Shown here one piece after another: positions 8,936-63,227 of a stretch of DNA of 64,000 nucleotides. The notes under the pieces were generated by a model. The model was not told the origin of the DNA. It did not search any database and saw only the letters and a program-made list of their open reading frames with translations. Source of the DNA: Vicinamibacteria bacterium (GTDB lineage: Bacteria; Acidobacteriota; Vicinamibacteria; Marinacidobacterales; Marinacidobacteraceae); contig OZ241322.1 of NCBI GenBank assembly GCA_965199715.1, positions 576,001-640,000 on the forward strand, in the 5' to 3' direction. The first letter of the stretch is position 1, and every line of letters begins with the position of its first letter. Both the position numbers and the translations under genes were made by a program.

Positions 8936-11256
8936 CGGAAGCGGTATTGAACCCCGACCTCGAGAAGCCGGCCCAGCGGTCGGAAGCCGTTGCTCTCGAA
9001 CGCGCGGTCGTCGAAGAGGTCACGAACCTGCAGCCGCAGCCGGAGATCGTCGAGCGCATCCCAGCCGGCGACGAGATCCACGCGCCGCATCCCGGAGAAC
9101 TGGAACACCCGGCTCGAGAAATCGGTCGGATCGAAGAGCGGCCCGTACTTGTCGGAGCTCAGGTGCGCGTCCACCGCCCAGGCGAACCGCGCCGCCCGTC
9201 CGGAGAGGACGACGCTTCCCTCGTACTCCGGGAGCAACCATGCGCGGGGGAGTTCGTCGGGGGCGTTGTCGGGCGGGTCGGCGTCGGTCCAGGTGAACGA
9301 GCCCCGGACGCGGGTCGCGCCCGGAAGCGCGACGCGCGCGCTGGCCTCGATTCCCCGCGCCGCTCCCGCGCTCTCGTTCTCGTAGCCGGAGAAGCGTCCG
9401 AACGGGTCGGTCGCGGAGTCGATGGGCCCGAAGGCGATGACCTGCGGACGCTCGGAGCGGAACCAGGCCGCCTCGGCGGCGAACCCGCCGTCGAGGGAGG
9501 ACGCGGCGAAGCCCAGGTCCTGAACGGTCGTGAACTCGGGTTCGAGGCGCGGGTCGCCGTACACGGAGTAACCGAAGGACGAGTACCACGTCCCGAACCG
9601 CTCGTAGAGCGAGGGCGCCCGGAAGCCGCGAGCCCACGAACCCCGGAGCCGGAAGGAATCGGTGACCGCGAACGCTGCGGCTGCGTCGCCGCTCCAGCCG
9701 CGGCCGCCTTCGGGAGACGGAACGTCCGACCACGGGCCGCCGGCGGCGGGGCGGAGGTCCGGGGCGTCGGTCGCGAACCCCTGCATCCGAATCGCGCCCC
9801 GGATCCGGGCGCGGTCCGACAGGGCGAATTCTTCCTGGGCGAAGAACCCGATCGACGATTGCCGCGCCTCCACGCCCGCGAGCGGATTGGCCGTTTCCAT
9901 CCGTTCCACGTGCGCCTCGCCGCCGAGCGTGAGGTCATGCGCGCCGGCGGCGGCGATCCGCGCCGTCGCGCCCCGGACGCCGCCGTCCCAGGTCGAGGTC
10001 TGGAGCGAAGCCGGATCCCACGGGCTCGTCCCGAGCGGCCCGTCCTCGTTCTCGCGGACGGTCACGAGCTCCTGAAACCGCACGTCCCACGCCGCCCGGG
10101 CGCCCAGAGCGCCGGAGAGCGACGCCTGGGCGGCGAAGTAGCGGGTCCGCTGGGTGGCGTCCGGATCGACGAGATCCGGCACGAAGGTGGCTCCGCCGAA
10201 GTCAAGGTCGTCGTGCGGCGTTCCCGCCTCCAGCGCCTCGACCTGCGCGGGCGACGCAGCGTTCGCCGGGACGATTCCGGCGGGCGCGCCCGGAAGCGCG
10301 CCCGGGCTCTCGGCCAGGCCCAGACTCGCGGCCGAGCCGAGAATCCGGCCGGTGATCCGGACGCCGCCCGCTTCCAGCGACGCGCGGGCGAGGCCGCCGA
10401 GGTTCGCGTAGCGGTCGTCCCCGGTCGGGCCCTCGCGGAACCCGGTCCGGGTCAGTCCGCCCGAGACGTCGATCCCCTGCCCGTTCGTCGCGAGAAGGGC
10501 GCCGGCGCGGGACTTCCCGAGCCCTCCGAGTCCGGCGTCCAGCGTGACCCGGGGGCCGGTTTCGGCCGATCGGGTGACGATGTGGATCACGCCTCCCATG
10601 CCGTTCGTGCCGTAGAGCGAGGATCCGCCGCCGCGACGCAGCTCGACCCGATCGATCCCCAAGGTCGGGATCGCAGGCAGGATGCTGGCGGCGGAGGCCT
10701 GGGGCGCCGCCGTGTCGCGAAGCGGCGCTCCGTCCACGATCACCGCCGTGCCCGGACCGGGAAGGCCCCGCACCGACGCCGACATGACGCGGCCCGGCCC
10801 CCCGTTCTGCCGGAGGTGGAGCCCGGGAAGGCCGCGAAGCGCTTCGGCGAGCAGCCACTCGCCCCGCTCGTCCAGTTCCTCGGACGAGACGACGGACACG
10901 AGCGCGGCCGCGTCCGCCCTCGGCGCTCCGGCGGCCGAGACCACGACCTCCTCGCGCACGGCGCGGAACCGCAGCGTGAGTTCCTGCGCGGGACCGCCGG
11001 GCGCGACTTCCACCGGCGCGGACGTGAGGTCCCCGAGGCGGGCGCTCGCGAGGTAGCGGGACTCGGATAGCGCGTCGAACGAGACCGCGCCGTCGGGGTC
11101 GGCGGTCCGGCGCAGCGCATGCCCGCCGAGCATCGACTCGAGGCGCACCACGCTGCCGCCGACGGGCGCGCCGTCCTCGTCGAGGACGCGGAAGGTGAGC
11201 GATTCGCCGGCGAGCAGCGGGGGAATCGAGAGGATGAAGGAAAGAAGGAAGGCCAT
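8932..11256 (-). CDS. btuB: TonB-dependent receptor, probable cobalamin transporter (BtuB-like)
   Basis: ATG at 11256, signal peptide, carboxypeptidase-regulatory-like N-domain, plug (IDRVELRRGGGSSLYG), GFRAPSLYE, C-terminal YRFR; lies under a B12 riboswitch and next to pduO. Confidence 0.85.
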   Translation of the reverse strand: MAFLLSFILSIPPLLAGESLTFRVLDEDGAPVGGSVVRLESMLGGHALRRTADPDGAVSFDALSESRYLASARLGDLTSAPVEVAPGGPAQELTLRFRAVREEVVVSAAGAPRADAAALVSVVSSEELDERGEWLLAEALRGLPGLHLRQNGGPGRVMSASVRGLPGPGTAVIVDGAPLRDTAAPQASAASILPAIPTLGIDRVELRRGGGSSLYGTNGMGGVIHIVTRSAETGPRVTLDAGLGGLGKSRAGALLATNGQGIDVSGGLTRTGFREGPTGDDRYANLGGLARASLEAGGVRITGRILGSAASLGLAESPGALPGAPAGIVPANAASPAQVEALEAGTPHDDLDFGGATFVPDLVDPDATQRTRYFAAQASLSGALGARAAWDVRFQELVTVRENEDGPLGTSPWDPASLQTSTWDGGVRGATARIAAAGAHDLTLGGEAHVERMETANPLAGVEARQSSIGFFAQEEFALSDRARIRGAIRMQGFATDAPDLRPAAGGPWSDVPSPEGGRGWSGDAAAAFAVTDSFRLRGSWARGFRAPSLYERFGTWYSSFGYSVYGDPRLEPEFTTVQDLGFAASSLDGGFAAEAAWFRSERPQVIAFGPIDSATDPFGRFSGYENESAGAARGIEASARVALPGATRVRGSFTWTDADPPDNAPDELPRAWLLPEYEGSVVLSGRAARFAWAVDAHLSSDKYGPLFDPTDFSSRVFQFSGMRRVDLVAGWDALDDLRLRLQVRDLFDDRAFESNGFRPLGRLLEVGVQYRFR

Positions 11257-11389
11257 GACGAGTCCTCGCGGCGAAGCCGGGCGGACTCGTCCTTCCACGT
11301 TCGCGCGCACGAACCCCAAGGGAACCAAGGGGCAATGGCGGCGGAGCATGAAGGAGGGTTCTTCCCGACGAAGAAACTCCCGCAATGGG

Positions 11390-11595
11390 CTTCGGGCAGG
11401 TCTCCTGACTTACGGATCGGACGCGGGGCATCCACCCGGCCCTCCCTTCCCGCCGGCCAAGGCCGGCAGTGGGCGCCGGACCGAAGTCCGGCGCGGGCTG
11501 GGCAATCCGATTCACAGTGGCGCGGGCCGTCCGGGATTCGCACCCGGTTCCCTCTTCGTCGGCGACCGCTGGCGGCCGCCGAAACCTGAAGCCGT
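11390..11595 (-). ncRNA. cobalamin (B12) riboswitch
   Basis: Minus strand carries the canonical elements in order: CAGGT...AAGAGGGAA-CCGGGTGCGAATCCCGG-ACGGCCCGCGCCACTGTGA...CCACTG...GGGAAG...AAGTCAGGAGACCTGCC (B12 box). Confidence 0.95.
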
Positions 11596-11627
11596 GTGTG
11601 GAAGGCGGGCCGAGTATAGCGGCGGCT

Positions 11628-20233: not shown

Positions 20234-21212
20234 GCGCCGCCGCATCGTCACCGTCGGCAACGCGCTCGTGGACGCGATCGCGCGGATCCCCGACGAGCGG
20301 CTCGCCGCGGTCGGCTATCCCAAGGGGCACATGAGCCTCGTCAGCGGCGAGGAGCAGGCGACCGCGCTGGCGCGGCTCGAGGGAACCCGCGTCGGGCTCG
20401 CGCCCGGCGGATCCGCGGCCAACACCGCCGTGGGAGCGGCCCGGCTCGGCGCCGAGGCGGCGTTCTTCGGCCGGGTGGCCGACGACGCGACCGGCCGGCT
20501 GTTCCGCGACGAGCTCGTGCGGGCCGGGGTCCGACCGGGGTCGCGGCTGGTCGTGGCCGGGGCCGAGCGGACCGGCGTGAGTCTGGTCATGACGACTCCC
20601 GACGGGCAACGCACGATGCTGACCAACCTCGGCGCAGCCCCCGACATCGGCCCGGGCGCCTTCGACGCCGAGCTGGTGCGGGACGCCCGCTTCCTCTACT
20701 TCGAGGGATACCTGCTGACCAACCCCGTGGCCCGCCAGACGGTTGTCGAGACATCCCGCCGGGCGGCCGCGGACGGGGTGACCGTGGCGCTTTCCGCATC
20801 CGACGGATTCGTGATGGACGTGGCCGGAGATGTCGTGCGGGAGCTGCTGGACGGACCGGTGAGCCTCCTGTTCGCGAATCTGGACGAGGCCCGGCACCTG
20901 ACCGGCCTCGTCGATCCCGCCCGGGTCGCCGCGAGCCTCGCCGAGTGGGACGGCCTCACCGCGCTCACGCTCGGCGGCGACGGCTCGATCCTGATCCGGG
21001 GCGCGGAGCGCATCCGGATTCCGCCGGTCCGCGTCCCGGTCGTCGATACGAGCGGGGCCGGGGATCTCTACGCCGCCGGACTGCTCGCGGGCCTCGCCCG
21101 GGGGTCGTCGCTCGAGGAGGCGGGGCGGCTCGCGTCACGCGCCGCGGCGCAGGTCGTGACCGTGCACGGGCCGAGGCTGCCGGAGGGCTTCAGAGTCGGA
21201 ACAAACGGGTGA
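20226..21212 (+). CDS. PfkB family carbohydrate/adenosine kinase
   Basis: GNALVD, PGGSAANT, FANLDEA, DTSGAGDLYAAG. Confidence 0.92.
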   Translation: MAERRRIVTVGNALVDAIARIPDERLAAVGYPKGHMSLVSGEEQATALARLEGTRVGLAPGGSAANTAVGAARLGAEAAFFGRVADDATGRLFRDELVRAGVRPGSRLVVAGAERTGVSLVMTTPDGQRTMLTNLGAAPDIGPGAFDAELVRDARFLYFEGYLLTNPVARQTVVETSRRAAADGVTVALSASDGFVMDVAGDVVRELLDGPVSLLFANLDEARHLTGLVDPARVAASLAEWDGLTALTLGGDGSILIRGAERIRIPPVRVPVVDTSGAGDLYAAGLLAGLARGSSLEEAGRLASRAAAQVVTVHGPRLPEGFRVGTNG

Positions 21213-23439
21213 ACTTCACGACCAGCGCGCGGTCGGTGAGCCCGCTGAGCCCGTCGTCGCCGTCCCGGTTGCTGCTGAACACGACGAAGAGGTCGCTGCC
21301 CGGCGAGTACTCCCAGCGGAAGCGCACGTTCGCCGAGAAGAGCTCCGCCGCCGAGTTGTACTGGACCAGCGCGCCCACGAAGCTGCGCGGCGACACGGTG
21401 AACGTGCCCCGCAGCCGCGAGACCAGCGCGTCCACGTCTCCCTGGGGAGTCCGAATCCAATTGAAGCTCAGGTTCGGCTCGAGCGAGAAGCGCTCGTTGA
21501 CGTCGGTGCGCCCCCAATAGCTGGCCTCCCTCCGGGTTCCGCCGAAGAAGTCGCCCCACTCGTAGCGGGCGTATCCCGAGACCGGGCGGTGGCTTCCCAT
21601 CCACACGCGAAGACTGGTGCGGTGGAACCGGTAGTCCCCGGCGAGGACCGCCACGTCCTCGGAGAGGTCGAAGCCCTCGAGCAGCCGCTCCTCGGTCAGG
21701 CTGTGCGTGAACACGAGGCGATCGCTCGTCTCGAGCACGGCCCGGGCCTCGAGGTTGTACTCGCGGGTCTCGAGTTCGCCGTCGAGGCGGTCGTAGTTGT
21801 TCGCCTCCACCTTGAACTCGAACTGGCGGATCCGGTCGATCCCCCGAGGCCGCGGCGCCAACTGGAACGAACCCCCCGTCTTCGTGAAGTCCCGGCGCCG
21901 CGCGAACCCCATCTCCGGGTTGAAGTCCTCCCCCAGGTACATCCGCTCCGCCGTCACGTCGATCAGGTCCGTGTCGTAACGGAACTGACCCATGTAGCTC
22001 GCCGCCCGGTGCGACAGCTCGCGCTCCGTGTCCCGCGTCGCCATGTAGAACGCGTTCACGTTCACGTGCTCCGTCGGGTTGAACACCCCGTCCATCCCCA
22101 CCAGCGAGTTCGTCCCCGTCTCCGCCGCGTTCACGTTCCGGTGCGTCGCGATCAGCCCCACGCTCGAGCGCGCGAACACGTCCCGCTTCACCCGCACCGC
22201 GCTGTAGTTCGTCGCCGAGGCGTCCACCCCCGAAGCCTCCCCCGTCTGGATGTTCATCAGCCCCAACTGGTACGCGCCCACCCGACCGTGCACCCGCGCG
22301 CCCCCCGCGATCGGCACCGAGCGCCCGCCCGACAGCCCGATCGTCCGGCTGAAGAACGGGATCGGCGCGTCCGAAGGCCCCTGCCCCCCGAACGCCCGCG
22401 TCTGACGCCCCCCGAAGTCGAACACCCCCTGCCCCTCGAGGAAGAACTCCCGCTTCTCCGGGAAGAACAGGCTGAACCGCGACAGGTTCACCTGCGTCTC
22501 GTCGTCCTCCACCTGCGCGAAGTCCGTGTTCCACGTCAGGTCCGCCGTCAGCCCGTCCGTGATCCCGAACTTGAAGTCCGCCCCGAAGTCCCCCGACCAC
22601 TCGTTGTCCACCTCGTTCAGCGGCGCGTGGCTCTGCGACCCGATCGCGTACGGCTTGAACTCCATCCGGCGCGAACTCGGCGGGGCCTCCAGCCCCACCA
22701 GCGTCGCCGCGTTCGACAGCCGGATCAGCCCGTCGCGGTCGTAGGCTTGCGGCGTGGGGGTGAAGAACACCCGCTCGTTGCGGTGCTTGATGTTGCGCTG
22801 GAAATTGATCCCCCACGTCTGGGGGCCTCCGGCGGCGTAGCGCAGCGAACGGAACGGAATCCGGATCTCCAGCGTCCAGCCCCGCTCCGTGTCCCGGGTC
22901 TCGGACCACCAGACGGTGTTCCAGTCGCTGTTCGTGTTGCGCTCGTCGGTGACCTGCGCGTCGTACAGCGCCCCGAGCGGATTCGTGTGGAAGAGGAACC
23001 CGTTGCGTCCGTCGTGGAAGGTGTCGAGCACGAACTGGAAGCTGTCGTTCCAGCCGATCCGCATGTTGTCCCGGCGCATCTCGTTCGCGATCCGCCGCCC
23101 CCCGCCGGCCTCGTCCAGCTCGGCCGCGACGTAGAGGTTGTCCGCGTCGTAGAACACCCACACGCGGGTCTCCTCCGAAGCCGGCGCGCCCTCGTTCGGC
23201 TCCTGCTGAAGGAATCCCCCGGCGGCCGGGACCTCGTCGTACACCGGGTCGTCCAGCGCCCCGTCCACGTTCAGGGGCGCGGCGAGCCGGAACGCGCGCA
23301 GCGTGACGCTCCCGTCGGCTTCCCGGCTCACGGCCGCTTCCGGAAGCGCCCGGCCCGACGCGGCGGAAACGTCGCCGTCCTGGGCGCCGGCGTCGGTCAG
23401 GCCGGCGACCAGCGCGGCGGCCAGAAAGGCGCGGGACAT
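21190..23439 (-). CDS. DUF5916 / CBM9-like domain putative outer-membrane protein (copy A)
   Basis: Signal peptide, DGALDD CBM9-like N-domain, NTDFAQVEDD..VNLSRFSLFFPEKREFFLEG, C-terminal KFTRLF. Confidence 0.85.
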   Translation of the reverse strand: MSRAFLAAALVAGLTDAGAQDGDVSAASGRALPEAAVSREADGSVTLRAFRLAAPLNVDGALDDPVYDEVPAAGGFLQQEPNEGAPASEETRVWVFYDADNLYVAAELDEAGGGRRIANEMRRDNMRIGWNDSFQFVLDTFHDGRNGFLFHTNPLGALYDAQVTDERNTNSDWNTVWWSETRDTERGWTLEIRIPFRSLRYAAGGPQTWGINFQRNIKHRNERVFFTPTPQAYDRDGLIRLSNAATLVGLEAPPSSRRMEFKPYAIGSQSHAPLNEVDNEWSGDFGADFKFGITDGLTADLTWNTDFAQVEDDETQVNLSRFSLFFPEKREFFLEGQGVFDFGGRQTRAFGGQGPSDAPIPFFSRTIGLSGGRSVPIAGGARVHGRVGAYQLGLMNIQTGEASGVDASATNYSAVRVKRDVFARSSVGLIATHRNVNAAETGTNSLVGMDGVFNPTEHVNVNAFYMATRDTERELSHRAASYMGQFRYDTDLIDVTAERMYLGEDFNPEMGFARRRDFTKTGGSFQLAPRPRGIDRIRQFEFKVEANNYDRLDGELETREYNLEARAVLETSDRLVFTHSLTEERLLEGFDLSEDVAVLAGDYRFHRTSLRVWMGSHRPVSGYARYEWGDFFGGTRREASYWGRTDVNERFSLEPNLSFNWIRTPQGDVDALVSRLRGTFTVSPRSFVGALVQYNSAAELFSANVRFRWEYSPGSDLFVVFSSNRDGDDGLSGLTDRALVVKFTRLFRL

Positions 23440-25012
23440 GGGCGTCCGCAGTCTAGCCCCGCAGCCCGCGTCAGAACCGGAACAGCCGGGTGAACTTGAC
23501 GACGAGCGTGCGGTCGGTCAGGCCGCTGAGCGCGTCGTCCCCGTCCCGGCTGCTGCTGAACACGACGAAGAGGTCGCTGCCGGGCGAGTACTCCCAGCGG
23601 AAGCGCACGTTCGCCGAGAAGAGCTCCGCCGCCGAGTTGTACTGGACCAGCGCGCCCACGAAGCTGCGCGGCGACACGGTGAACGTGGTGCGAAGGTAGG
23701 TCACCGTCGCCCTCACGTCGCCCGCCGGCACGGTGATCCAGTTGAGGCTGACGTTGGGCTCGAGGATGAGGCGGTTCCCGGCCGCGGCGCGCCCCATGTA
23801 GCTGACCTCGCGCCGGGTTCCGCCGAAGAAGTCGCCCCACTCGTAGCGCAGGAACCCCGACACCCGCCGGTGCGATCCCATCCGGAAGCGGACCCCGGTG
23901 CGGGCGAACCGGTAGTTCCCGGCGAGGACCGCCACGTCCTCGGAGAGGTCGAAGCCCTCTTGCAGCCGCTCCTCGGTGATCGTGTGGTCGAGGAAGATGC
24001 GGTCGCTGCTCTCGAAGATCGCGCGGGCGTCGAACTTGTACTCGCGGGTCTCGAGTTCGCCGTCGAGGCGGTCGTAGTTGTTCGCCTCCACCTTGAACTC
24101 GAACTGGCGGATCCGGTCGATCCCCCGAGGCCGCGGCGCCAACTGGAACGAACCCCCCGTCTTCGTGAAGTCCCGGCGCCGCGCGAACCCCATCTCCGGG
24201 TTGAAGTCCTCCCCCAGGTACATCCGCTCCGCCGTCACGTCGATCAGGTCCGTGTCGTAACGGAACTGACCCATGTAGCTCGCCGCCCGGTGCGACAGCT
24301 CGCGCTCCGTGTCCCGCGTCGCCATGTAGAACGCGTTCACGTTCACGTGCTCCGTCGGGTTGAACACCCCGTCCATCCCCACCAGCGAGTTCGTCCCCGT
24401 CTCCGCCGCGTTCACGTTCCGGTGCGTCGCGATCAGCCCCACGCTCGAGCGCGCGAACACGTCCCGCTTCACCCGCACCGCGCTGTAGTTCGTCGCCGAG
24501 GCGTCCACCCCCGAAGCCTCCCCCGTCTGGATGTTCATCAGCCCCAACTGGTACGCGCCCACCCGACCGTGCACCCGCGCGCCCCCCGCGATCGGCACCG
24601 AGCGCCCGCCCGACAGCCCGATCGTCCGGCTGAAGAACGGGATCGGCGCGTCCGAAGGCCCCTGCCCCCCGAACGCCCGCGTCTGACGCCCCCCGAAGTC
24701 GAACACCCCCTGCCCCTCGAGGAAGAACTCCCGCTTCTCCGGGAAGAACAGGCTGAACCGCGACAGGTTCACCTGCGTCTCGTCGTCCTCCACCTGCGCG
24801 AAGTCCGTGTTCCACGTCAGGTCCGCCGTCAGCCCGTCCGTGATCCCGAACTTGAAGTCCGCCCCGAAGTCCCCCGACCACTCGTTGTCCACCTCGTTCA
24901 GCGGCGCGTGGCTCTGCGACCCGATCGCGTAAGGCTTGAACTCCATCCGGCGCGAACTCGGCGGGGCCTCCAGCCCCACCAGCGTCGCCGCGTTCGACAG
25001 CCGGATCAGCCC
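21755..25012. repeat. ~977-bp near-identical direct repeat (21755-22731 and 24036-25012) inside the two DUF5916 genes
   Basis: Constant offset 2281; translations are identical over the block; one synonymous difference seen by eye (22651 C vs 24932 A). Confidence 0.93.
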
Positions 25013-25792
25013 ATTGCGCCCGTAGGCCTGCGGAGTGGGGGTCAGGAAGGACTGCTCGTTGCGGTGCTTCAGCCGGCGGCGGAAATTGATCCCCCAGGTC
25101 TGGGCTCCTCCCGCCGGATAGCGGAGCGAACGGAACGGGATCCGCATCTCGACGGTCCAGCGGTCCTCGAGGCTGGACGCCTTCACCCGCCAGACGGTGT
25201 TCCAGTCGCTGTTCGTGTTGCGCTCGTCGGTGACCTGCGCGTCGTACAGCGCCCCGAGCGCGTTCGTGTGGAAGAGGAACCCGTTGCGTCCGTCGTGGAA
25301 CGTGTCGAGGATGACCGAGAAGCTGTCTCCCCAGTCGATGTTCCGCTGGTCGCGGCGCATCTCGTTGGCCATCCGGCGCTCGGGATAGTGGTCTTCGAGC
25401 TCCGCCGCCACGTACAGGCTGTCCGCGTCGTAGAAGACCCAGACCCGCGTCGCCTCCGAGGACGGCTCGCCCTCGTTCGGCTCCATCTGGGTGAATCCCT
25501 CGGCCGACGGCGCCTCGTCGTACACGGGATCGTCGAGCACGCCATCGACGGCGAGCGGTTCGGCGAGCCGGAACGCGCGCAGCGTGACGCTTCCGTCGGC
25601 CTCCCGGCTCACGGCCGCTTCCGGAAGCGGTCGGCTCGCGACCGAGGATGCGTCGCCGTCCTGCTGGTCGAGGGCGAGCCGACCGCCCTGCCCCGAGGCC
25701 GCCGGCGCGACGAGCGCGACGCCCAATGCGACCGCAGCGCCGCCTATTCGATGCCTGACCAATGAACCGCCCCGTATACCAAGCGCAAGCAT
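23471..25792 (-). CDS. DUF5916 / CBM9-like domain putative outer-membrane protein (copy B)
   Basis: Same motifs as copy A; start uncertain (TTG at 25762 is possible). Confidence 0.85.
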   Translation of the reverse strand: MLALGIRGGSLVRHRIGGAAVALGVALVAPAASGQGGRLALDQQDGDASSVASRPLPEAAVSREADGSVTLRAFRLAEPLAVDGVLDDPVYDEAPSAEGFTQMEPNEGEPSSEATRVWVFYDADSLYVAAELEDHYPERRMANEMRRDQRNIDWGDSFSVILDTFHDGRNGFLFHTNALGALYDAQVTDERNTNSDWNTVWRVKASSLEDRWTVEMRIPFRSLRYPAGGAQTWGINFRRRLKHRNEQSFLTPTPQAYGRNGLIRLSNAATLVGLEAPPSSRRMEFKPYAIGSQSHAPLNEVDNEWSGDFGADFKFGITDGLTADLTWNTDFAQVEDDETQVNLSRFSLFFPEKREFFLEGQGVFDFGGRQTRAFGGQGPSDAPIPFFSRTIGLSGGRSVPIAGGARVHGRVGAYQLGLMNIQTGEASGVDASATNYSAVRVKRDVFARSSVGLIATHRNVNAAETGTNSLVGMDGVFNPTEHVNVNAFYMATRDTERELSHRAASYMGQFRYDTDLIDVTAERMYLGEDFNPEMGFARRRDFTKTGGSFQLAPRPRGIDRIRQFEFKVEANNYDRLDGELETREYKFDARAIFESSDRIFLDHTITEERLQEGFDLSEDVAVLAGNYRFARTGVRFRMGSHRRVSGFLRYEWGDFFGGTRREVSYMGRAAAGNRLILEPNVSLNWITVPAGDVRATVTYLRTTFTVSPRSFVGALVQYNSAAELFSANVRFRWEYSPGSDLFVVFSSSRDGDDALSGLTDRTLVVKFTRLFRF

Positions 25793-25845
25793 ACGCGAAA
25801 CGCCGGGCCGGAACCTCCGCGCCGCCGTTTCCGTTAGGGGTGGAC

Positions 25846-26928
25846 ATGAAGCGCACTCTGGTCATCCTGATCGCGGGCGCGGCCGTCGTCGGCAGCGCCG
25901 CGGTCGCCGCCAGCCTCCTCTCCGACTCCGAACCCACGGTCGCCGAGGCGGCCGCGGAGGAACCCGCCCCCACTCCGGTGAGCGTGGCCGCCGCCGGGGT
26001 CGGTCCGGTCGCCGTGCGCCTCGCGACCACTTCCGCGATCGAGGCGGAGCGCACCGCGCAGGTGCTTTCCGAGACCTCCGGCGTGGTCACCGGGATCCTC
26101 GTCGGCGAAGGCCAGCGGGTCGCCGAGGGGGCCGTCCTCGCCCACGTGGACGCGCGGGACCGCCGCCTCTCCTTCGAGCAGGCCGAGCTGCGGCTCTCGC
26201 GGGCGGAAGCCGAGCTCTCGCGCCAGCGGCGCGCTTTCGAGCAGGATCTGGTCGCCGAGTACGAATACGAGAAGGCCCGCTTCGACCGCGATCTCGCCGC
26301 CTCCGAACGGGAGACCGCCCGGCTGGAGCTCGAGCGGACCGAGATCCGGGCGCCCTTCGCCGGGACGATCACCGAGCTTGCGGTCGTGGCCGGAGCGCGG
26401 CTCGAGCCGGCGCAGCACCTGCTCACGCTCGCCGACTTCGACACCCTGATCGCGCGCCTCTACATCCCCGAGCGCGACGTCGCAGGCCTCGTGCCCGGCC
26501 AGCGCGCCCGGATCCACCCCGAATCCGATCCTCGGGGCGCGGGGCGCGACGGCGCGGTGCGCGAGATCGGCCCGGTCGTGGACCGCTCCACCGGGACCGT
26601 CAAGGTGACCGTGGCCATTCCGCACGGCGGCGGGGGCGCGGTGCGGCCCGGCTCGTTCGCCCGGGTGGTCATCGAGACCGGCGTGCGCGAGAACGCGGTG
26701 CTGACCCCGAAGCGGGCGGTGATGCGCGGCAACGGCCAGAGCCACGTGTTCGTGGTCGAGAACGGCCGCGCGGTCCGGCGCGACGTCACGCTCGGCGCGG
26801 AGATCGAGGGCCCCTCGGGCGCGCTGCTGGAAGTCGCCGGGGGACTCGCCGAGGGCGAGCAGGTCGTCGTCGCCGGACAGGGATCGCTCGCGCCCGGCGC
26901 GGCGGTCGAAGTCCTGAACGGCCTCTGA
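25846..26928 (+). CDS. RND efflux periplasmic adaptor (MFP)
   Basis: N-terminal TM, V.EGQRV..G.VLA lipoyl half-motif, IRAPFAG, VDRSTGT. Confidence 0.92.
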   Translation: MKRTLVILIAGAAVVGSAAVAASLLSDSEPTVAEAAAEEPAPTPVSVAAAGVGPVAVRLATTSAIEAERTAQVLSETSGVVTGILVGEGQRVAEGAVLAHVDARDRRLSFEQAELRLSRAEAELSRQRRAFEQDLVAEYEYEKARFDRDLAASERETARLELERTEIRAPFAGTITELAVVAGARLEPAQHLLTLADFDTLIARLYIPERDVAGLVPGQRARIHPESDPRGAGRDGAVREIGPVVDRSTGTVKVTVAIPHGGGGAVRPGSFARVVIETGVRENAVLTPKRAVMRGNGQSHVFVVENGRAVRRDVTLGAEIEGPSGALLEVAGGLAEGEQVVVAGQGSLAPGAAVEVLNGL

Positions 26929-50837: not shown

Positions 50838-51698
50838 TCACTGAGCCTTGGCGGCTAACCTATCCAGCGCCGCCAGCATCGCCTGCCGAGAAAGCGTCGC
50901 CGTGTGTACGTCCGGCGTGAAGCCGGTCTCCAACTGCTTGCTAGCGTGTACGTAATTCCGAAACTCCCGAAGCGCGTGGCTATATTTCAGAATATCGTCG
51001 CCCAAGAGTCCTCTTTCGTGCGCCGTGTCAATCATCGGCCCCAGACTCACGCCTCCCTTCTTGCCCTTGCGTCCGATGAGCACACCCTGCCGCCCAGCTA
51101 AAGCAGCCGTCGCAGTCGTGCCGCCCGCTGTAGGTAGGCGCAGGGCAGCCATCAAGACCGCTTCCAGTACGCTGCCGCACAGGATGATCGTGGCAAGATG
51201 CGCCCCCGCTGCGAAGCAGGCCTCGATTTCCGTCAGGCGTAGGGCCACGATCGGTCGCAGCACTCCGTCGATCGGGAGCCGCGAGATGTCTGGGCGCGGA
51301 AACTCCGCTTGGAGGAACGTTCCGACATCAGAAACGCGAGTCTCCCCCACTCCACCGACCAGTCGTATTGCCAAGGCGTGTGTTCGCTCCAATAGGCGAT
51401 CGTCCCCATTCTCACGACCGGGTGCATAGTGCACCGTGTAGTGTTCGCACAAGCCAAGCAGAACACGCCCTACAAGATCATTCGACTCCAAGCTCCAGAA
51501 CGCACGAAGCCGATTGGCTTTGGACTGACCTTGCTGACTGTATTTCTCCGAATAGATGTCGATTCCGTAGTCCTCGAAGAACTCGGCGAAGGTCCGATTG
51601 GAGAAATCAAGGACGTAGCCGCTCTCCATACCGAGAAGGCGCTCGAGAGACAATTTGCCCGAGCTCTTCAAGGAACTCATCGCGAGTAGTCGCGGCAT
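50838..51698 (-). CDS. putative defence protein: Abi-associated N-terminal domain + HEPN-like C-terminal domain
   Basis: GYVLDFSNRTFAEFF...IDIY...SKANRLRAFW N-terminus; C-terminal ILCGSVLEAVL...LREFRNYVH; visibly lower GC than neighbours. Confidence 0.6.
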   Translation of the reverse strand: MPRLLAMSSLKSSGKLSLERLLGMESGYVLDFSNRTFAEFFEDYGIDIYSEKYSQQGQSKANRLRAFWSLESNDLVGRVLLGLCEHYTVHYAPGRENGDDRLLERTHALAIRLVGGVGETRVSDVGTFLQAEFPRPDISRLPIDGVLRPIVALRLTEIEACFAAGAHLATIILCGSVLEAVLMAALRLPTAGGTTATAALAGRQGVLIGRKGKKGGVSLGPMIDTAHERGLLGDDILKYSHALREFRNYVHASKQLETGFTPDVHTATLSRQAMLAALDRLAAKAQ

Positions 51699-51823: not shown

Positions 51824-52144
51824 CTACTCCGCGTCGGCCACGACGGAAGCCGTGGGGTCCACTCCGGCATCGGACACAAAGTCCAGGCGGAGACGCGTAC
51901 CGGTCGCCTTGGCGTACCGCTGCAGCGTCGCCACTGAGGGAGAGACCTTCCCCCCCTCAAGGCGTGCGATCGCGGACTGCGTGGTGCCGAGACGGCGAGC
52001 GACATCCTCCTGGGTGAGGTTGGCGGCCGTCCGGGCACGGAGCAGCGCCTCAAGAAGGCCAAACTCCTCTTCAGCACGTGCGTACTCGGCCGGGAACTCC
52101 GGGTCCTTCATGAACCGCTTCTCAAGGTCCTCAAGCTTGGTCAT
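51824..52144 (-). CDS. XRE-family HTH antitoxin (HigA-like)
   Basis: ARTAANLTQEDVARRLGTTQSAIARLEGGKVSPSVATLQRYAKATG; overlaps the toxin stop. Confidence 0.9.
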   Translation of the reverse strand: MTKLEDLEKRFMKDPEFPAEYARAEEEFGLLEALLRARTAANLTQEDVARRLGTTQSAIARLEGGKVSPSVATLQRYAKATGTRLRLDFVSDAGVDPTASVVADAE

Positions 52145-52463
52145 GGAATCACCTGCTTCATCCGTTCACGAGCCGTCGCGAGCGCCCGCAGGGGCGTGCG
52201 ACGCGATTTCTTGGGGAACGCGTGCAGCGCCACGACACGCCGACCGGTGACTGTCACGTAGATCGCCCGTGCCCTCGTGCCGTGTGCGCTGACCTTGAAC
52301 TCCCAGGGTCTTCCCCCAAGGTGCCTGGCGTGCCTAGCCGGAAGGTTGATGGGCCCGAACTCCCGAACAGTTCGAAGCAGCCGCAACAAACGCGCACGGG
52401 GGGCTGAGGGGAGCGCCGCAATTTCCGAGTCCGCCGCCGGACAGCTTCCACGACCCAACCCAC
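52141..52463 (-). pseudogene. RelE/HigB (Gp49-like) toxin, frameshifted near the N-terminus
   Basis: GTG 52463 reads VGWVVEAV; the body (AADSEIAALP...RHLGGRPWEFK...RAIYV...LHAFPKKSRRTP) is in another frame, with the shift near 52439. Confidence 0.7.
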
Positions 52464-56539: not shown

Positions 56540-57644
56540 CTACGAAGGCGGGCGGGCGAAGAACTTCAGCCCGGCCTTGATGAAGGCGTCGAGGTCGCCG
56601 CCCATGACCCGGTCCACGTCTCCCGCCTGATGGCCGGTCCGGTGGTCCTTGACCATGCGATACGGCTGGAACACGTACGACCGGATCTGGTTGCCCCACG
56701 TGTTCTCGCCGAGGCTCTCCCTTTGCGCCTCCTCGGATTCCTTCTGCTCGCGCACCGCCTTGTCGTACAGGCGCGCCCGCAGCACCTTCATCGCGCTGTC
56801 GCGGTTGCGGTGCTGGGAGCGCTCGTTCTGGCAGGAGACCACGATCCCGGTCGGCAGGTGGGTGATCCGGACCGCCGAATCGGTCACGTTCACGTGCTGG
56901 CCGCCCTTGCCGCTGGCGCGGAAGGTGTCGATGCGCAGGTCGCCCTCCTCGATCTCGATCTCGATGCGGTCGTCGAGATCGGGGAACGCCGCCACCGACG
57001 CGAACGACGTGTGCCGCCGGTGCTGGGCGTCGAACGGGGACATGCGGACCAGCCGGTGGATGCCCGACTCGACCCGCAGCAGCCCGTAGGCGTGTTCGCC
57101 CCGCACCTCGACGGTCGCGCTCTTGATCCCCGCCTCGTCGCCCGCCTGCCGGTCGAGAATCTCCACGGTCAGGCCCCGGCCGCTCGCCCAGCGCAGGTAC
57201 ATCCCGAGGAGCATCCCGGCCCAGTCCTGCGCGTCGGTGCCCCCGGCGCCGGGGTTGATCGACAGGATGGCGTCCTCGCCGTCGTGCTCGCCGTGGAAGA
57301 GCCGCCGCAGCTCCAGCTCCCCGACGCGGGCCGTGAGCCGGTCGAGGTGCTCCTTCAAGTCGGCTTCGACGTCTTCCTCCCCCTCTTCGGCCCACTCGAC
57401 GAGCGTCGCGACCTCGTCGGCCAGACCGTCGAGGTCGCGGCCCCCGTCGAGATCGGACGCGAGCGAGGCGCGGCGGCGCGAGAGCTCCCGCCCGCTCCCC
57501 GACGCCGACCAGACCTCCGGGTCGCTCAGCTTCCGGTCGAGTTCGGCGATCTCCCGCGCCGCGGCGTCCAGGTCAAAGGAACCCCCTGACGGCGCCGATC
57601 CGGTCCTTGAGCCCTCGCCAGCGTTCGAGCAGTTCCTGCTGCAT
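56540..57644 (-). CDS. prfB: peptide chain release factor 2 (programmed +1 frameshift)
   Basis: ATG 57644 reads MQQELLERWRGLKDRIGAVRGFL, then CTT TGA C at 57578-57572 with internal SD AGGGGG; downstream SPF and GGQ motifs. Confidence 0.96.
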
Positions 57645-60398: not shown

Positions 60399-60871
60399 AG
60401 GATGCCCCGCTCGTGGATCGTCTTGAGTTCGAGAACCTCGAGTTCGCGCTCGCCCGCGGGCGCTCTGAAGTACACGAAGTCCGAGACGCAGGCGCCGATG
60501 AGCGCCCGCCCGATCGGGGAGGCCGTGGAAATGCGGCCCAAGCTCGCGTCGGCCTCCTCGCTCACCACGAGCTCGTAGCGGCATTCGCGACCGCTGGTGT
60601 GATCCATCACCCGCACCTCGCTCCCCAGCGAGACCCGGTCGTTCGGGATGCTGTCGAGGTGGAGCATGGACAGGTCGGCGAGGCGTTTCTTCAACTGGGC
60701 GAGGCGGGCGCTGACGAACGCCTGCCGCTCCTTCGCCGCGTCGTACTCGGCGTTCTCCGAGAGATCCCCGTGCTCCCGCGCCTCCCGGATCTGCTTGGGA
60801 AGCTGCAGGTGAAGCTCCTCCTCCAGCGCGCGCACCTCCGCCTCGAGCTTGGAGCGAAACGTCAGTGCCAC
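60395..60871 (-). CDS. greA: transcription elongation factor GreA
   Basis: AREHGDLSENAEYDAAKERQ, ISTASPIGRALIG. Confidence 0.94.
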   Translation of the reverse strand: MALTFRSKLEAEVRALEEELHLQLPKQIREAREHGDLSENAEYDAAKERQAFVSARLAQLKKRLADLSMLHLDSIPNDRVSLGSEVRVMDHTSGRECRYELVVSEEADASLGRISTASPIGRALIGACVSDFVYFRAPAGERELEVLELKTIHERGIL

Positions 60872-61036
60872 CGTAGGAATCCGTGCGGGTTGAGAACGAG
60901 CCTATGTTACTTCGGAGGACGGCCCGATCGCCCCGGTCCGGGGGCGCGTACGGCGCGACGCGATCGGCTCGTCCGGCAGGTTGCGGGAAGGCGCCGCCGG
61001 GCGGCATGATTCCGCGTTCCCGAAGGGGGTTCTCCC

Positions 61037-61645
61037 ATGAAGACTCGACTCCTGCGAGAGTCGGCGCTCGCCGCCGGCGTCGCCCTGAGCCTGCCGCTCG
61101 CGGCCGGAGCCCAGACCATGAATCTCAAGGTGGGCGACCGCGCCCCGATGTTCCCGAACCCCCTGCCGTCCACGGCCGGGGAGTCCGCCGGAGCGACCAA
61201 GCTCGGGCTCGACGCCGCGCTCGGCGAGAAGAACATCGTCCTCGCGTTCTACGTGGCCGACTGGACCGGTGGTTGAACGCTCCAGTTTTCGTCCTACAAG
61301 GACGACATCCAGAAGTTTCTGGATGCGGACACGCAAGTTTTCGGGATCAGCGTGGACACGCCCTACTCCCAGTGGAACTGGCTCGGGAGCGTCGGCGACG
61401 AGTCCGGCATGATGGTCGAGCCCGCCGCCGACGGCGACCTGCCGGGCCTCGTGCTCCTGTCGGACCGCCACGCCGAGGTGATCGACGCCTACGGGGTGGA
61501 GCCGCTCGAGATCAACGGCGCCCGGTACGCGTCGCGGGCGACGTTCGTCATCGATCGGGAGGGCGTGCTCCAGTACGTCAACTACGACTACCAGATCCGC
61601 GACGACTACGAGCCGCTGCTCGAGGTCCTCGCCGGACTCGAATAG
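61037..61645 (+). CDS. AhpC/TSA peroxiredoxin-like protein, probable selenoprotein (UGA at 61274-61276)
   Basis: VLAFYVADWTGG-TGA-TLQFSSYKDDIQKFLDADTQVFGISVDT...LLSD...AYGV...RATFVIDREG is continuous in frame; the TGA sits at the peroxidatic Cys of the PxxxTxxC motif. Confidence 0.85.
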
Positions 61646-61655
61646 CCGACGCCGC

Positions 61656-62381
61656 GTGACCTGCCGGGAGGCCCTCGTGGTCTCGATGCGGCGCGGTCCC
61701 GCCAACGCGATCGATCCCGAGCTCGTCGCGCAGCTCGGGGCGAGCCTCGACGAGGCCGAGGCGACGGGGCGGCCGCTCGTCCTGACCGGCGCCGGGCGCT
61801 TCTTCAGCGCGGGGCTGAACCTCGAGACGCTCCCCGACGACCGGGAGGCGATGGGGACCTTCCTCGACACCCTCGACGAACTCCTCCTCCGCCTGTTCCG
61901 GCTCCCCTGCCCCACCGTCGCCGCGGTGAACGGCCACGCGGTCGCGGGAGGCGCGATCCTCGCCGCCGCCTGCGACGTGCGCTTCGGCGCCGAGGGGAAC
62001 TATCGGGTCGGACTCTCGGAAGTGAGCCTCGGGGTCGTCTTCCCGGCGGCGGCTCTCGAGATCATCCGGGCCACCGTGCCGCGGTCGCGCCTTCCCGAAG
62101 TCCTCTTGGCGAGCCATCTGAGCCGGCCGGTGGGGGCCGTGGGCGCGGGGTTCCTCCACGAACTCGCGCCGTCGAGGGAGCTGCTCGCGCGCGCCGTCGA
62201 GCACGCCGAGATGCTCGGGGCGCAGCCGCGCACCGCCTACACCCACACGAAGCGGGCGCTGCGCGACGAGCACGTGGACCGCGCGCGGCGACGCCGCGCG
62301 GTGTGCCGGGAGGGATTCCTCGACACGTGGTTCTCCGAGGACGCGGCGCGCCGTCGCGCCGCGGTCCTCGGCCGGGCCTGA
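61656..62381 (+). CDS. enoyl-CoA hydratase/isomerase family
   Basis: ANAID, FFSAGLNL, AAVNGHAVAGG, GLSEVSLG. Confidence 0.9.
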   Translation: MTCREALVVSMRRGPANAIDPELVAQLGASLDEAEATGRPLVLTGAGRFFSAGLNLETLPDDREAMGTFLDTLDELLLRLFRLPCPTVAAVNGHAVAGGAILAAACDVRFGAEGNYRVGLSEVSLGVVFPAAALEIIRATVPRSRLPEVLLASHLSRPVGAVGAGFLHELAPSRELLARAVEHAEMLGAQPRTAYTHTKRALRDEHVDRARRRRAVCREGFLDTWFSEDAARRRAAVLGRA

Positions 62382-62384
62382 CCG

Positions 62385-63227
62385 CTACTCCTCGGTCCCG
62401 CCGGAGTGCGAGGCGATCGCCGCCCGGATCGCCGGGACGGTCACTGAACTCCGATACCGGAAAAGGCGCAGCCCCCAGGCGACGGTCTCGTCCAGCGGGT
62501 CCAGATCCACGCCGTTGATCCGGAAGAGCCCGGCCTTCCGGCGCTCGGCGGTGCGGATCGAATTCGGATCCACGGCGGCCATCATCGAGGACATGGCGAA
62601 CTCGTCGTGGACGCCCTCCGGCTCCTCCTCGATCCCGTTCTCGTTCAGCCACGTCCGCAGCCCCATCACGTCGTAGAACTCGGGGATGAAATGGACCCCC
62701 GGAGCGCCGCCGAACTCGGCGTGCATCTCCTCGGCCACCGCAGCCATTCCGGCCTGGTTGCCGCCGCTGTCCCCAAGGAAGATGACGTGCTGGAAGCCGC
62801 TCGCCCGCAGGCTGCGAGCCACGTCGCGGAGCACGGCCCGGAAGGTCTCCTCGCTGAGGCCGACCGTACCGGGATAGCGCATGTGTCCGGTCGGGGGATC
62901 GAAGTCGCCCTCGGGCACCAGCTTCAGGATGGGCGCCACGAGCGCGTCCCCTAGGTCGCGGGCGATCGCCTCGGTGGCGCCGCGCAGGAGGACGTTGTGC
63001 TTTCCGGTAGCCAGGTACGGGCCGTTCTGCTCCACGCCGCCGCTCGCGACGAGCGCGGTCGTCTTGCCGGCGGCGATGAGGTCCCTCACCTCCATCCAGG
63101 TCAGGTCCTCGATGAACACCGAGTCGCGGATCGGGATCGGGCGGGGCTTGTCCGGCTCCGGCGACTGGGCGGCGGCGACGGACCCCGCGAGCCCGAAGAG
63201 CGTCAGGACGAGGGCGAGCTTGCGCAT
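62385..63227 (-). CDS. creatininase family protein, exported
   Basis: Signal peptide; EDLTWMEV, GGVEQNGPY, PGTVGL, DSGGNQ. Confidence 0.87.
   Translation of the reverse strand: MRKLALVLTLFGLAGSVAAAQSPEPDKPRPIPIRDSVFIEDLTWMEVRDLIAAGKTTALVASGGVEQNGPYLATGKHNVLLRGATEAIARDLGDALVAPILKLVPEGDFDPPTGHMRYPGTVGLSEETFRAVLRDVARSLRASGFQHVIFLGDSGGNQAGMAAVAEEMHAEFGGAPGVHFIPEFYDVMGLRTWLNENGIEEEPEGVHDEFAMSSMMAAVDPNSIRTAERRKAGLFRINGVDLDPLDETVAWGLRLFRYRSSVTVPAIRAAIASHSGGTEE

Follow-up and report, generated by a model that had tools for sequence, protein, structure and literature searches.

The open-reading-frame track of the window (the whole 64,000-nucleotide stretch of Vicinamibacteria DNA analysed here) cuts the region 61037-61645 on the forward strand into two short products, of 79 aa (61037-61276) and 97 aa (61352-61645). 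The question raised by this locus is whether these are pieces of a damaged gene, two separate genes, or a single gene in which the intervening stop codon is read as an amino acid. An earlier note had proposed the last, namely an exported peroxiredoxin with selenocysteine (Sec) in place of the catalytic cysteine. The region comprises a single 202-codon frame that contains one internal TGA at 61274-61276, with FYVADWTGG*TLQ as its context in the read-through translation, and ends with TAG. That the two pieces form one frame is borne out by the translation and by the match of the read-through product to the Pfam family AhpC-TSA (76 bits, with a cut-off of 26), which spans residues 32-181 and crosses the TGA. 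The claim that this product is free of cysteine holds as well, there being no Cys codon between 61037 and 61645. The GC3 value is 0.93 both before and after the TGA. Because TGA is the commonest stop of the long coding frames in the window, a reassigned code, in which TGA would stand for Trp or Gly, is ruled out. The features of the locus are as follows.

61022..61029, forward strand: purine run of Shine-Dalgarno type ahead of the ATG; all 23 related loci likewise have a GGAG(G)-type run in front of the leader ATG
61037..61645, forward strand: full gene of 202 codons, BCP/PrxQ-like fold, inferred Sec at codon 80, no Cys
61037..61111, forward strand: signal-peptide-like leader (heuristic) with a basic n-region, a hydrophobic core and A-G-A followed by Q
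61253..61276, forward strand: active-site loop V73-A-D-W-T77-G-G-U80, with Val at the canonical Pro position
61274..61276, forward strand: in-frame UGA, inferred Sec codon; TGA in 24/24 genes, 0 changes on the tree
61289..61305, forward strand: hairpin 1, 7 bp, ACA loop, -8.4 kcal/mol; Ser85 is encoded by the first codon of this stem
61306..61325, forward strand: hairpin 2, SECIS candidate, 8 bp, AGUU loop, -10.4 kcal/mol
61388..61432 (approximate limits), forward strand: insertion of about 15 residues between helix 3 and the next strand, a low-confidence loop in the model
61535..61537, forward strand: Arg167, the conserved peroxiredoxin catalytic Arg, R in 24/24 genes
61656..62381, forward strand: enoyl-CoA hydratase-family gene (Pfam ECH_1), 10 nt downstream

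A genome scan returned 71 pattern matches that resolved into 23 related loci, making 24 genes with the one in the window. All 23 are titled Acidobacteriota (Ca. Marinacidobacterales, Vicinamibacteria or unclassified), with 60-85% identity; OZ241856.1, OZ220713.1 and OZ250169.1 are among the sequences in which the gene occurs. The TGA occupies the same alignment column in every one of them (23/23, or 24/24 with the window) and is followed in all 23 by 121-122 open codons, and Cys is missing from the mature domain in 24/24 genes and in 46/46 close fragments. One of the scan patterns fell within a conserved stretch, so that amino acid invariance there is partly ascertainment; the patterns were degenerate, however, and synonymous invariance is therefore not due to this cause. 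For the window gene against the 23 loci, dN/dS was 0.128 before the RNA element described below and 0.160 after it, rough values at a pS of about 0.5. Furthermore, codons +2 to +25, which extend from the UGA to the first internal start, change synonymously while the protein is kept; this stretch is thus translated in frame, and the two-gene reading fails. The earlier note had named close relatives with Cys and relaxed selection downstream, along with a genome free of Sec machinery, as the signature of a simple nonsense mutation, and what we observed is TGA in all 23 loci and a downstream dN/dS well below unity. Judged from the sequences, the shared TGA column is not a product of chance, and both a pseudogene and an error of sequencing can be discounted.

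The protein databases present a corresponding picture. Searching a set of 5.8 billion proteins with the full-length product gave 7 matches, of which one is an N-terminal fragment ending at the TGA and the other six are full-length Cys proteins with 31-36% identity to the read-through query. The C-terminal part gave 50 matches, the 47 closest of which (56-99% identity, the window's own included) are all fragments of 68-106 aa. Cys and UGA were expected to alternate at the catalytic column if the gene encodes a selenoprotein, and at long distance they do, with Cys in 110/112 distant homologues, but no close Cys-bearing version was seen in the 5.8-billion-protein set. In phylogenetic analysis the UGA genes form one clade with support of 100/100 and a long stem branch (0.79). 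An apparent sister relationship with exported CxxxxC peroxiredoxins, with an SH-aLRT value of 90 in a quick 130-row tree, was lost in a careful tree of 40 of the 130 rows, where the sister group of the clade was not resolved. Separately from this clade, four distant peroxiredoxins (P0142, P0162, P0148 and P0166) carry another residue than Cys at the catalytic column (W, W, R or S) and possibly are mis-called UGA genes of other clades; the leader of P0142 is lipoprotein-like, and the Pro discussed below is missing from P0148 and P0162 as well. In another peroxiredoxin group, P0056 and P0057 are C-terminal fragments that start just past the catalytic column, which suggests a second UGA-split clade.

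Downstream of the UGA, bases +13 to +49 (37 nt) fold as two abutting hairpins. Segments of 51-70 nt give folding z-scores of -3.7 to -4.7 and a 100-nt segment gives -2.75, and the pair probabilities of the hairpins are 0.81-1.0 in a 183-nt context. Across the 24 genes, the only variable base of the two hairpins is in the middle of the hairpin 1 loop. With the element left out of tree building, the tree placed 2 synonymous changes in the whole element compared to 33.6 expected, with none in the stem codons of hairpin 1 (14.5 expected) and none in hairpin 2 (14.8 expected). Codon-invariant columns account for 11/12 in the element as opposed to 7/68 elsewhere (Fisher p 3e-8), and hairpin 2 keeps TTT and GAT fixed although both are disfavoured in this GC-rich gene. 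As no hairpin pair varies, covariation across the 24 genes lends no support. In its accessible text, the bacterial SECIS (bSECIS) model specifies a loop of 3-9 nt with G within its first two positions, a stem of 4-16 bp, a spacing of 16-37 nt and a minimum free energy of -7.5 or lower (PMC13188914). Hairpin 2 falls within all four limits (AGUU loop, 8 bp, -10.4, and 37 nt from the UGA, the model's upper limit on spacing), whereas the hairpin 1 loop lacks G. Shape alone is of low specificity: 150/1056 TGA triplets in the window pass our coding of the model, and 21/1056 pass a stricter one (stem of at least 8 bp, G[GU] loop). No second copy of the hairpins was found in the window or the related loci, and an Rfam scan of 8 of the 23 loci gave no match. 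Hairpin 1 may shorten the distance from the UGA to the loop that would bind SelB. The codon immediately after the UGA (61277-61279) is ACG in 24/24 genes, while Thr codons elsewhere vary; this invariance possibly reflects an effect of context on read-through.

Sec decoding is strongly supported because the UGA is conserved, both halves of the gene are under purifying selection and a SECIS-like RNA is frozen. The proposal that the UGA at the catalytic position specifies Sec thus gains strong support, and we consider insertion of Sec at codon 80 almost certain. Neither selA, selB, selD nor the gene for tRNA-Sec was detected in the window or the flanks (up to 10 kb), and ARAGORN found no tRNA over the 23 loci. 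The Pfam scan of the neighbourhood, at E 1e-6, covered 231 frames: 229 that represent the clusters made from 912 filtered frames of at least 80 aa, together with 2 more. Small genes, or genes that clustering had merged with others, may escape this filter. The idea that a suppressor tRNA or one with a UCA anticodon reads the UGA as Cys or Trp, so that the product is either a normal 1-Cys enzyme or inactive, would accommodate the lack of Sec machinery in the window and flanks, as well as tandem hairpins that differ from the textbook single stem. It is nevertheless highly improbable given the strong selection on a hairpin with a SECIS-type G-U loop, the use of UGA as the main stop in the window, and the reported use of Sec in this phylum, where three known selenoprotein genes are described in the accessible text on Occallatibacter (PMC12013277). 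An even smaller chance attaches to a nonsense mutation, a sequencing error or two genes. The databases do carry the halves as separate proteins, but the same TGA recurs in 24 independent assemblies, and this explanation is refuted by conservation, given the synonymous variation just past the UGA and the downstream dN/dS of 0.16.

A further recoding-type site lies 3.7 kb from the UGA gene. The prfB gene (56540-57644) has at 57572-57587 on the reverse strand a purine run followed by CTT TGA C, which we take to be the classic programmed +1 frameshift site of release factor 2; the same site is also seen in 11 loci. Release factor 2 competes with Sec insertion. The closeness of prfB to the UGA gene is probably a matter of synteny.

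The protein itself appears to be a variant on a familiar fold. An AlphaFold model of the mature chain, produced from a 124-row alignment with Cys in place of Sec, has a pLDDT of 91.9. Its best Foldseek match is Bcp4 (3hjp; E 1e-14, TM 0.74), with BCP, AhpC2 and AhpE structures also among the matches, and the best PDB sequence matches are likewise BCP-like. Residue 80 is in the first turn of helix 53-64 (numbering of the mature model), within T77-G-G-U80; Thr77 is invariant, and Arg167 is conserved in 24/24 genes and 109/112 homologues. Thus, of the motif F.P..[FW]T..C invoked in the earlier note, the Thr and the catalytic column are kept, but the Pro is absent: position 73 is Val in 24/24 UGA genes, compared to Pro in 96/112 and Val in 7/112 Cys homologues, among the latter P0066, which reads V...T..CTLQLC. 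The Pro of PxxxT/SxxC is called absolutely conserved in peroxiredoxins in the accessible text of PMC4749874. The resolving position in helix 2 is Ser85 across the UGA clade, as opposed to Cys in 70/112 homologues, and as hairpin 1 opens with the Ser85 codon, this position is now held by the RNA structure. In addition, the segment after helix 3 is 31-32 aa long in the UGA genes as against 17 aa in 74/80 measurable homologues, and the 15-residue insertion has a pLDDT of 61-72 in the model.

Under the definition of Poole and Nelson, the fold, T/SxxC(Sec) and the Arg are present and the Pro is missing. All NCBIfam peroxiredoxin models score far under their cut-offs, the best giving 46 of 211 bits; the PrxU model NF040737 gives 37 bits with a cut-off of 270, and the BCP model NF006960 gives 44 of 140 bits. 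The top structure match is of BCP type, as are the majority of the close Cys homologues, which carry CxxxxC. We filed the product as a TxxU selenoprotein variant of the peroxiredoxin fold, 1-Cys-BCP-like with Sec, that departs from the strict Pro criterion. With the Pro lost, both strict membership and peroxidase activity become less certain, but, on our analysis, peroxide reduction by the product of the UGA gene is still likely.

The signal-peptide-like start that had been proposed recurs across the clade: by a hydropathy heuristic, 24/24 genes have a basic and then hydrophobic leader with an A-x-A-like end, preceded by a Shine-Dalgarno run, and although the leader sequences diverge, they retain the A-x-A-type site with Q or E after it. 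The leader anatomy makes export of the product very probable and points to a general secretory leader. Tat export is not favoured, the twin-Arg being missing from the window gene and several loci. The best 12 full-length Cys relatives all have a hydrophobic leader and CxxxxC, and 46/112 homologues pass the same heuristic, so that exported BCP proteins are not rare. One locus, L014, has an in-frame insertion of about 70 aa in its leader, where a MITE-like element (9740-9962) with 30-nt inverted arms sits in frame; a second MITE-like copy lies about 350 nt upstream, and P0002 has a shorter in-frame version.

Taking these lines of evidence into account, we lean towards an exported 1-Sec peroxidase of the BCP/PrxQ type that is recycled by an outside thiol. 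SelB and Sec-tRNA would bind the hairpin element past the UGA and deliver Sec at codon 80, a step that the frozen RNA argues for strongly; the chain would then be exported by the general secretory route and, as the leader anatomy suggests, cleaved after residue 25. By analogy with the family, the Sec80 selenolate, with Thr77 and Arg167, would attack peroxide in the cell envelope and become a selenenic acid. Selenoenzyme chemistry also allows selenenyl-amide or diselenide intermediates. Since the chain itself offers no Cys, resolution of the oxidised Sec would have to come from an outside thiol; this would most likely be the CxxC of a periplasmic thioredoxin of the TlpA/DsbE type, encoded elsewhere and supplied with electrons through DsbD, CcdA or ScsB in a relay like that of PprX. 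Conceivably, the 15-residue loop serves as the docking site of the reductant. In the accessible literature, an outside thiol does the resolving job in 1-Cys peroxiredoxins without a resolving Cys (PMC4749874), and the relay from ScsB through TlpA to PprX offers a precedent for the reduction (PMC3322552).

Two other readings accept the selenoprotein and depart from the favoured one on its function or location. The rebuilt active site might serve a redox task other than classical peroxide scavenging in an exported selenoprotein, for instance relaying or sensing redox signals, or reducing peroxynitrite, hypohalous acid or sulfane sulfur. The change from Pro to Val in 24/24 genes, the 15-aa insertion, the long stem branch and scores below every curated NCBIfam peroxiredoxin cut-off would all fit such a shift, as would the precedent of Caulobacter PrxL, a peroxiredoxin-like, exported protein described in the accessible text as having no detectable peroxidase activity (PMC3322552). 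However, Thr77 and Arg167 are invariant, the fold is BCP-like, and Val at the Pro position also occurs in Cys homologues including P0066, so we regard this shift as unlikely. The chance is slimmer still that a Sec peroxiredoxin is made but not released to the periplasm, because its leader remains as an uncleaved anchor or because translation starts at Met28 and the product stays in the cytoplasm. The h-region in the window is modest (best 11-residue hydropathy 2.0), there is an internal ATG at codon 28, and the L014 leader carries its large insertion; against this, the Shine-Dalgarno run sits before the upstream ATG, and the A-x-A-type site with its Q or E persists across divergent leaders. 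An internal start at Met28 was rejected, this Met not being conserved and the codon being Val (GTC) in 15/24 genes.

A bolder version of the favoured peroxidase reading, which we consider doubtful, is that these genes represent a hitherto undescribed clade of selenoenzymes of the cell envelope, where the presence of Sec removes the need for a resolving Cys as well as for the 'invariant' Pro, with decoding by a two-hairpin SECIS. In this scheme, hairpin 1 would loop out 17 nt and bring the distant SelB-binding loop to the usual working distance, and the same looping-out would fix Ser at the former resolving position. If true, recoding at the RNA level would have locked in a novel catalytic cycle, one dependent on a dedicated reductant outside the cytoplasm.

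The 1-Cys BCP/PrxQ and AhpE enzymes are known as cytoplasmic proteins. They have the same fold (PDB 1xxu; Bcp4 3hjp), but Cys at the active site, and their identity to the window protein is 23-29%; about a third of PrxQ proteins lack a resolving Cys, according to the accessible text of PMC4749874. The portions of the sources available to us list bacterial TxxU peroxiredoxins as a family with experimental verification (PF00578/COG1225 Bcp; representative WP_011365628.1) and with 253 sequences in GOS. They resemble the UGA genes in having Sec for the peroxidatic Cys, the AhpC-TSA domain and an in-frame hairpin after the UGA. By description, however, they have PxxxTxxU rather than the VxxxTxxU found here, and the available accounts of the family mention no export signal, as opposed to the leader in these genes. 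The periplasmic PprX of Caulobacter crescentus is likewise of BCP/PrxQ type; it has a signal sequence and depends on a membrane transporter for electrons, which reach it through a TlpA-like protein. It is, however, described as having two Cys that form a disulfide and a full PxxxTxxC, whereas the UGA clade has an inferred Sec and an extra loop and lacks both Cys and the Pro (PMC3322552, accessible text). A signal peptide and UGA-encoded Sec are combined in one gene in MccSep/ExtKL (bioRxiv 10.1101/2025.11.18.688581), where MccSep has been shown to be periplasmic, and in SaoX and SaoC (bioRxiv 10.1101/2022.07.06.499078); as far as the available text of these reports goes, the proteins have unrelated folds and functions and come from anaerobes. 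The comparison also drew on the accessible parts of PMC1794560, PMC2398784 and PMC9312934.

Thus, TxxU peroxiredoxins, periplasmic peroxiredoxins, 1-Cys PrxQ proteins and exported selenoproteins are each known, and the 'unusual combination' of the earlier note is unusual as a combination only, its ingredients being singly in print. Neither an exported Sec peroxiredoxin nor the UGA clade was found in the literature searched, which included few subscription papers and in which supplements may list members; nor was anything found there on selenocysteine in sponge Acidobacteriota or under the lineage name. Within these limits, a Cys-free exported Sec peroxiredoxin without the Pro is a combination not found in print.

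The enoyl-CoA hydratase gene lies downstream in 24/24 cases (a glyoxalase gene intervenes in L020), and greA and NfeD/SPFH genes are upstream neighbours. The peroxiredoxin and enoyl-CoA hydratase genes are probably co-transcribed; a promoter and terminator scan of 60700-62500 found nothing, including no terminator-like site. The Pfam scan detected no DsbD/CcdA/ScsB or thioredoxin gene in the window or flanks. Elsewhere in the window, a cobalamin riboswitch (11378-11604, reverse strand) precedes a TonB-dependent receptor and a cobalamin adenosyltransferase gene. At 21190-25861 (reverse strand) lie two neighbouring genes of about 780-800 aa that look like paralogues, the member at 23474-25861 (reverse strand) matching DUF5916/CBM9. 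An HTH_3 protein with a small upstream ORF (51824-52458, reverse strand) is toxin-antitoxin-like by eye, and beside this pair lies an unannotated ORF of lower GC content (50838-51698).

Taken together, these results correct the annotation of a gene whose retrieved relatives sit in protein databases as two useless fragments. The frozen tandem hairpin provides a clean substrate for testing a non-textbook geometry of the bacterial SECIS. The gene is a small, single-domain natural test case of how a Cys-free Sec peroxidase would be recycled outside the cytoplasm, and it also allows one to test whether the peroxiredoxin Pro is less needed once Sec is present.
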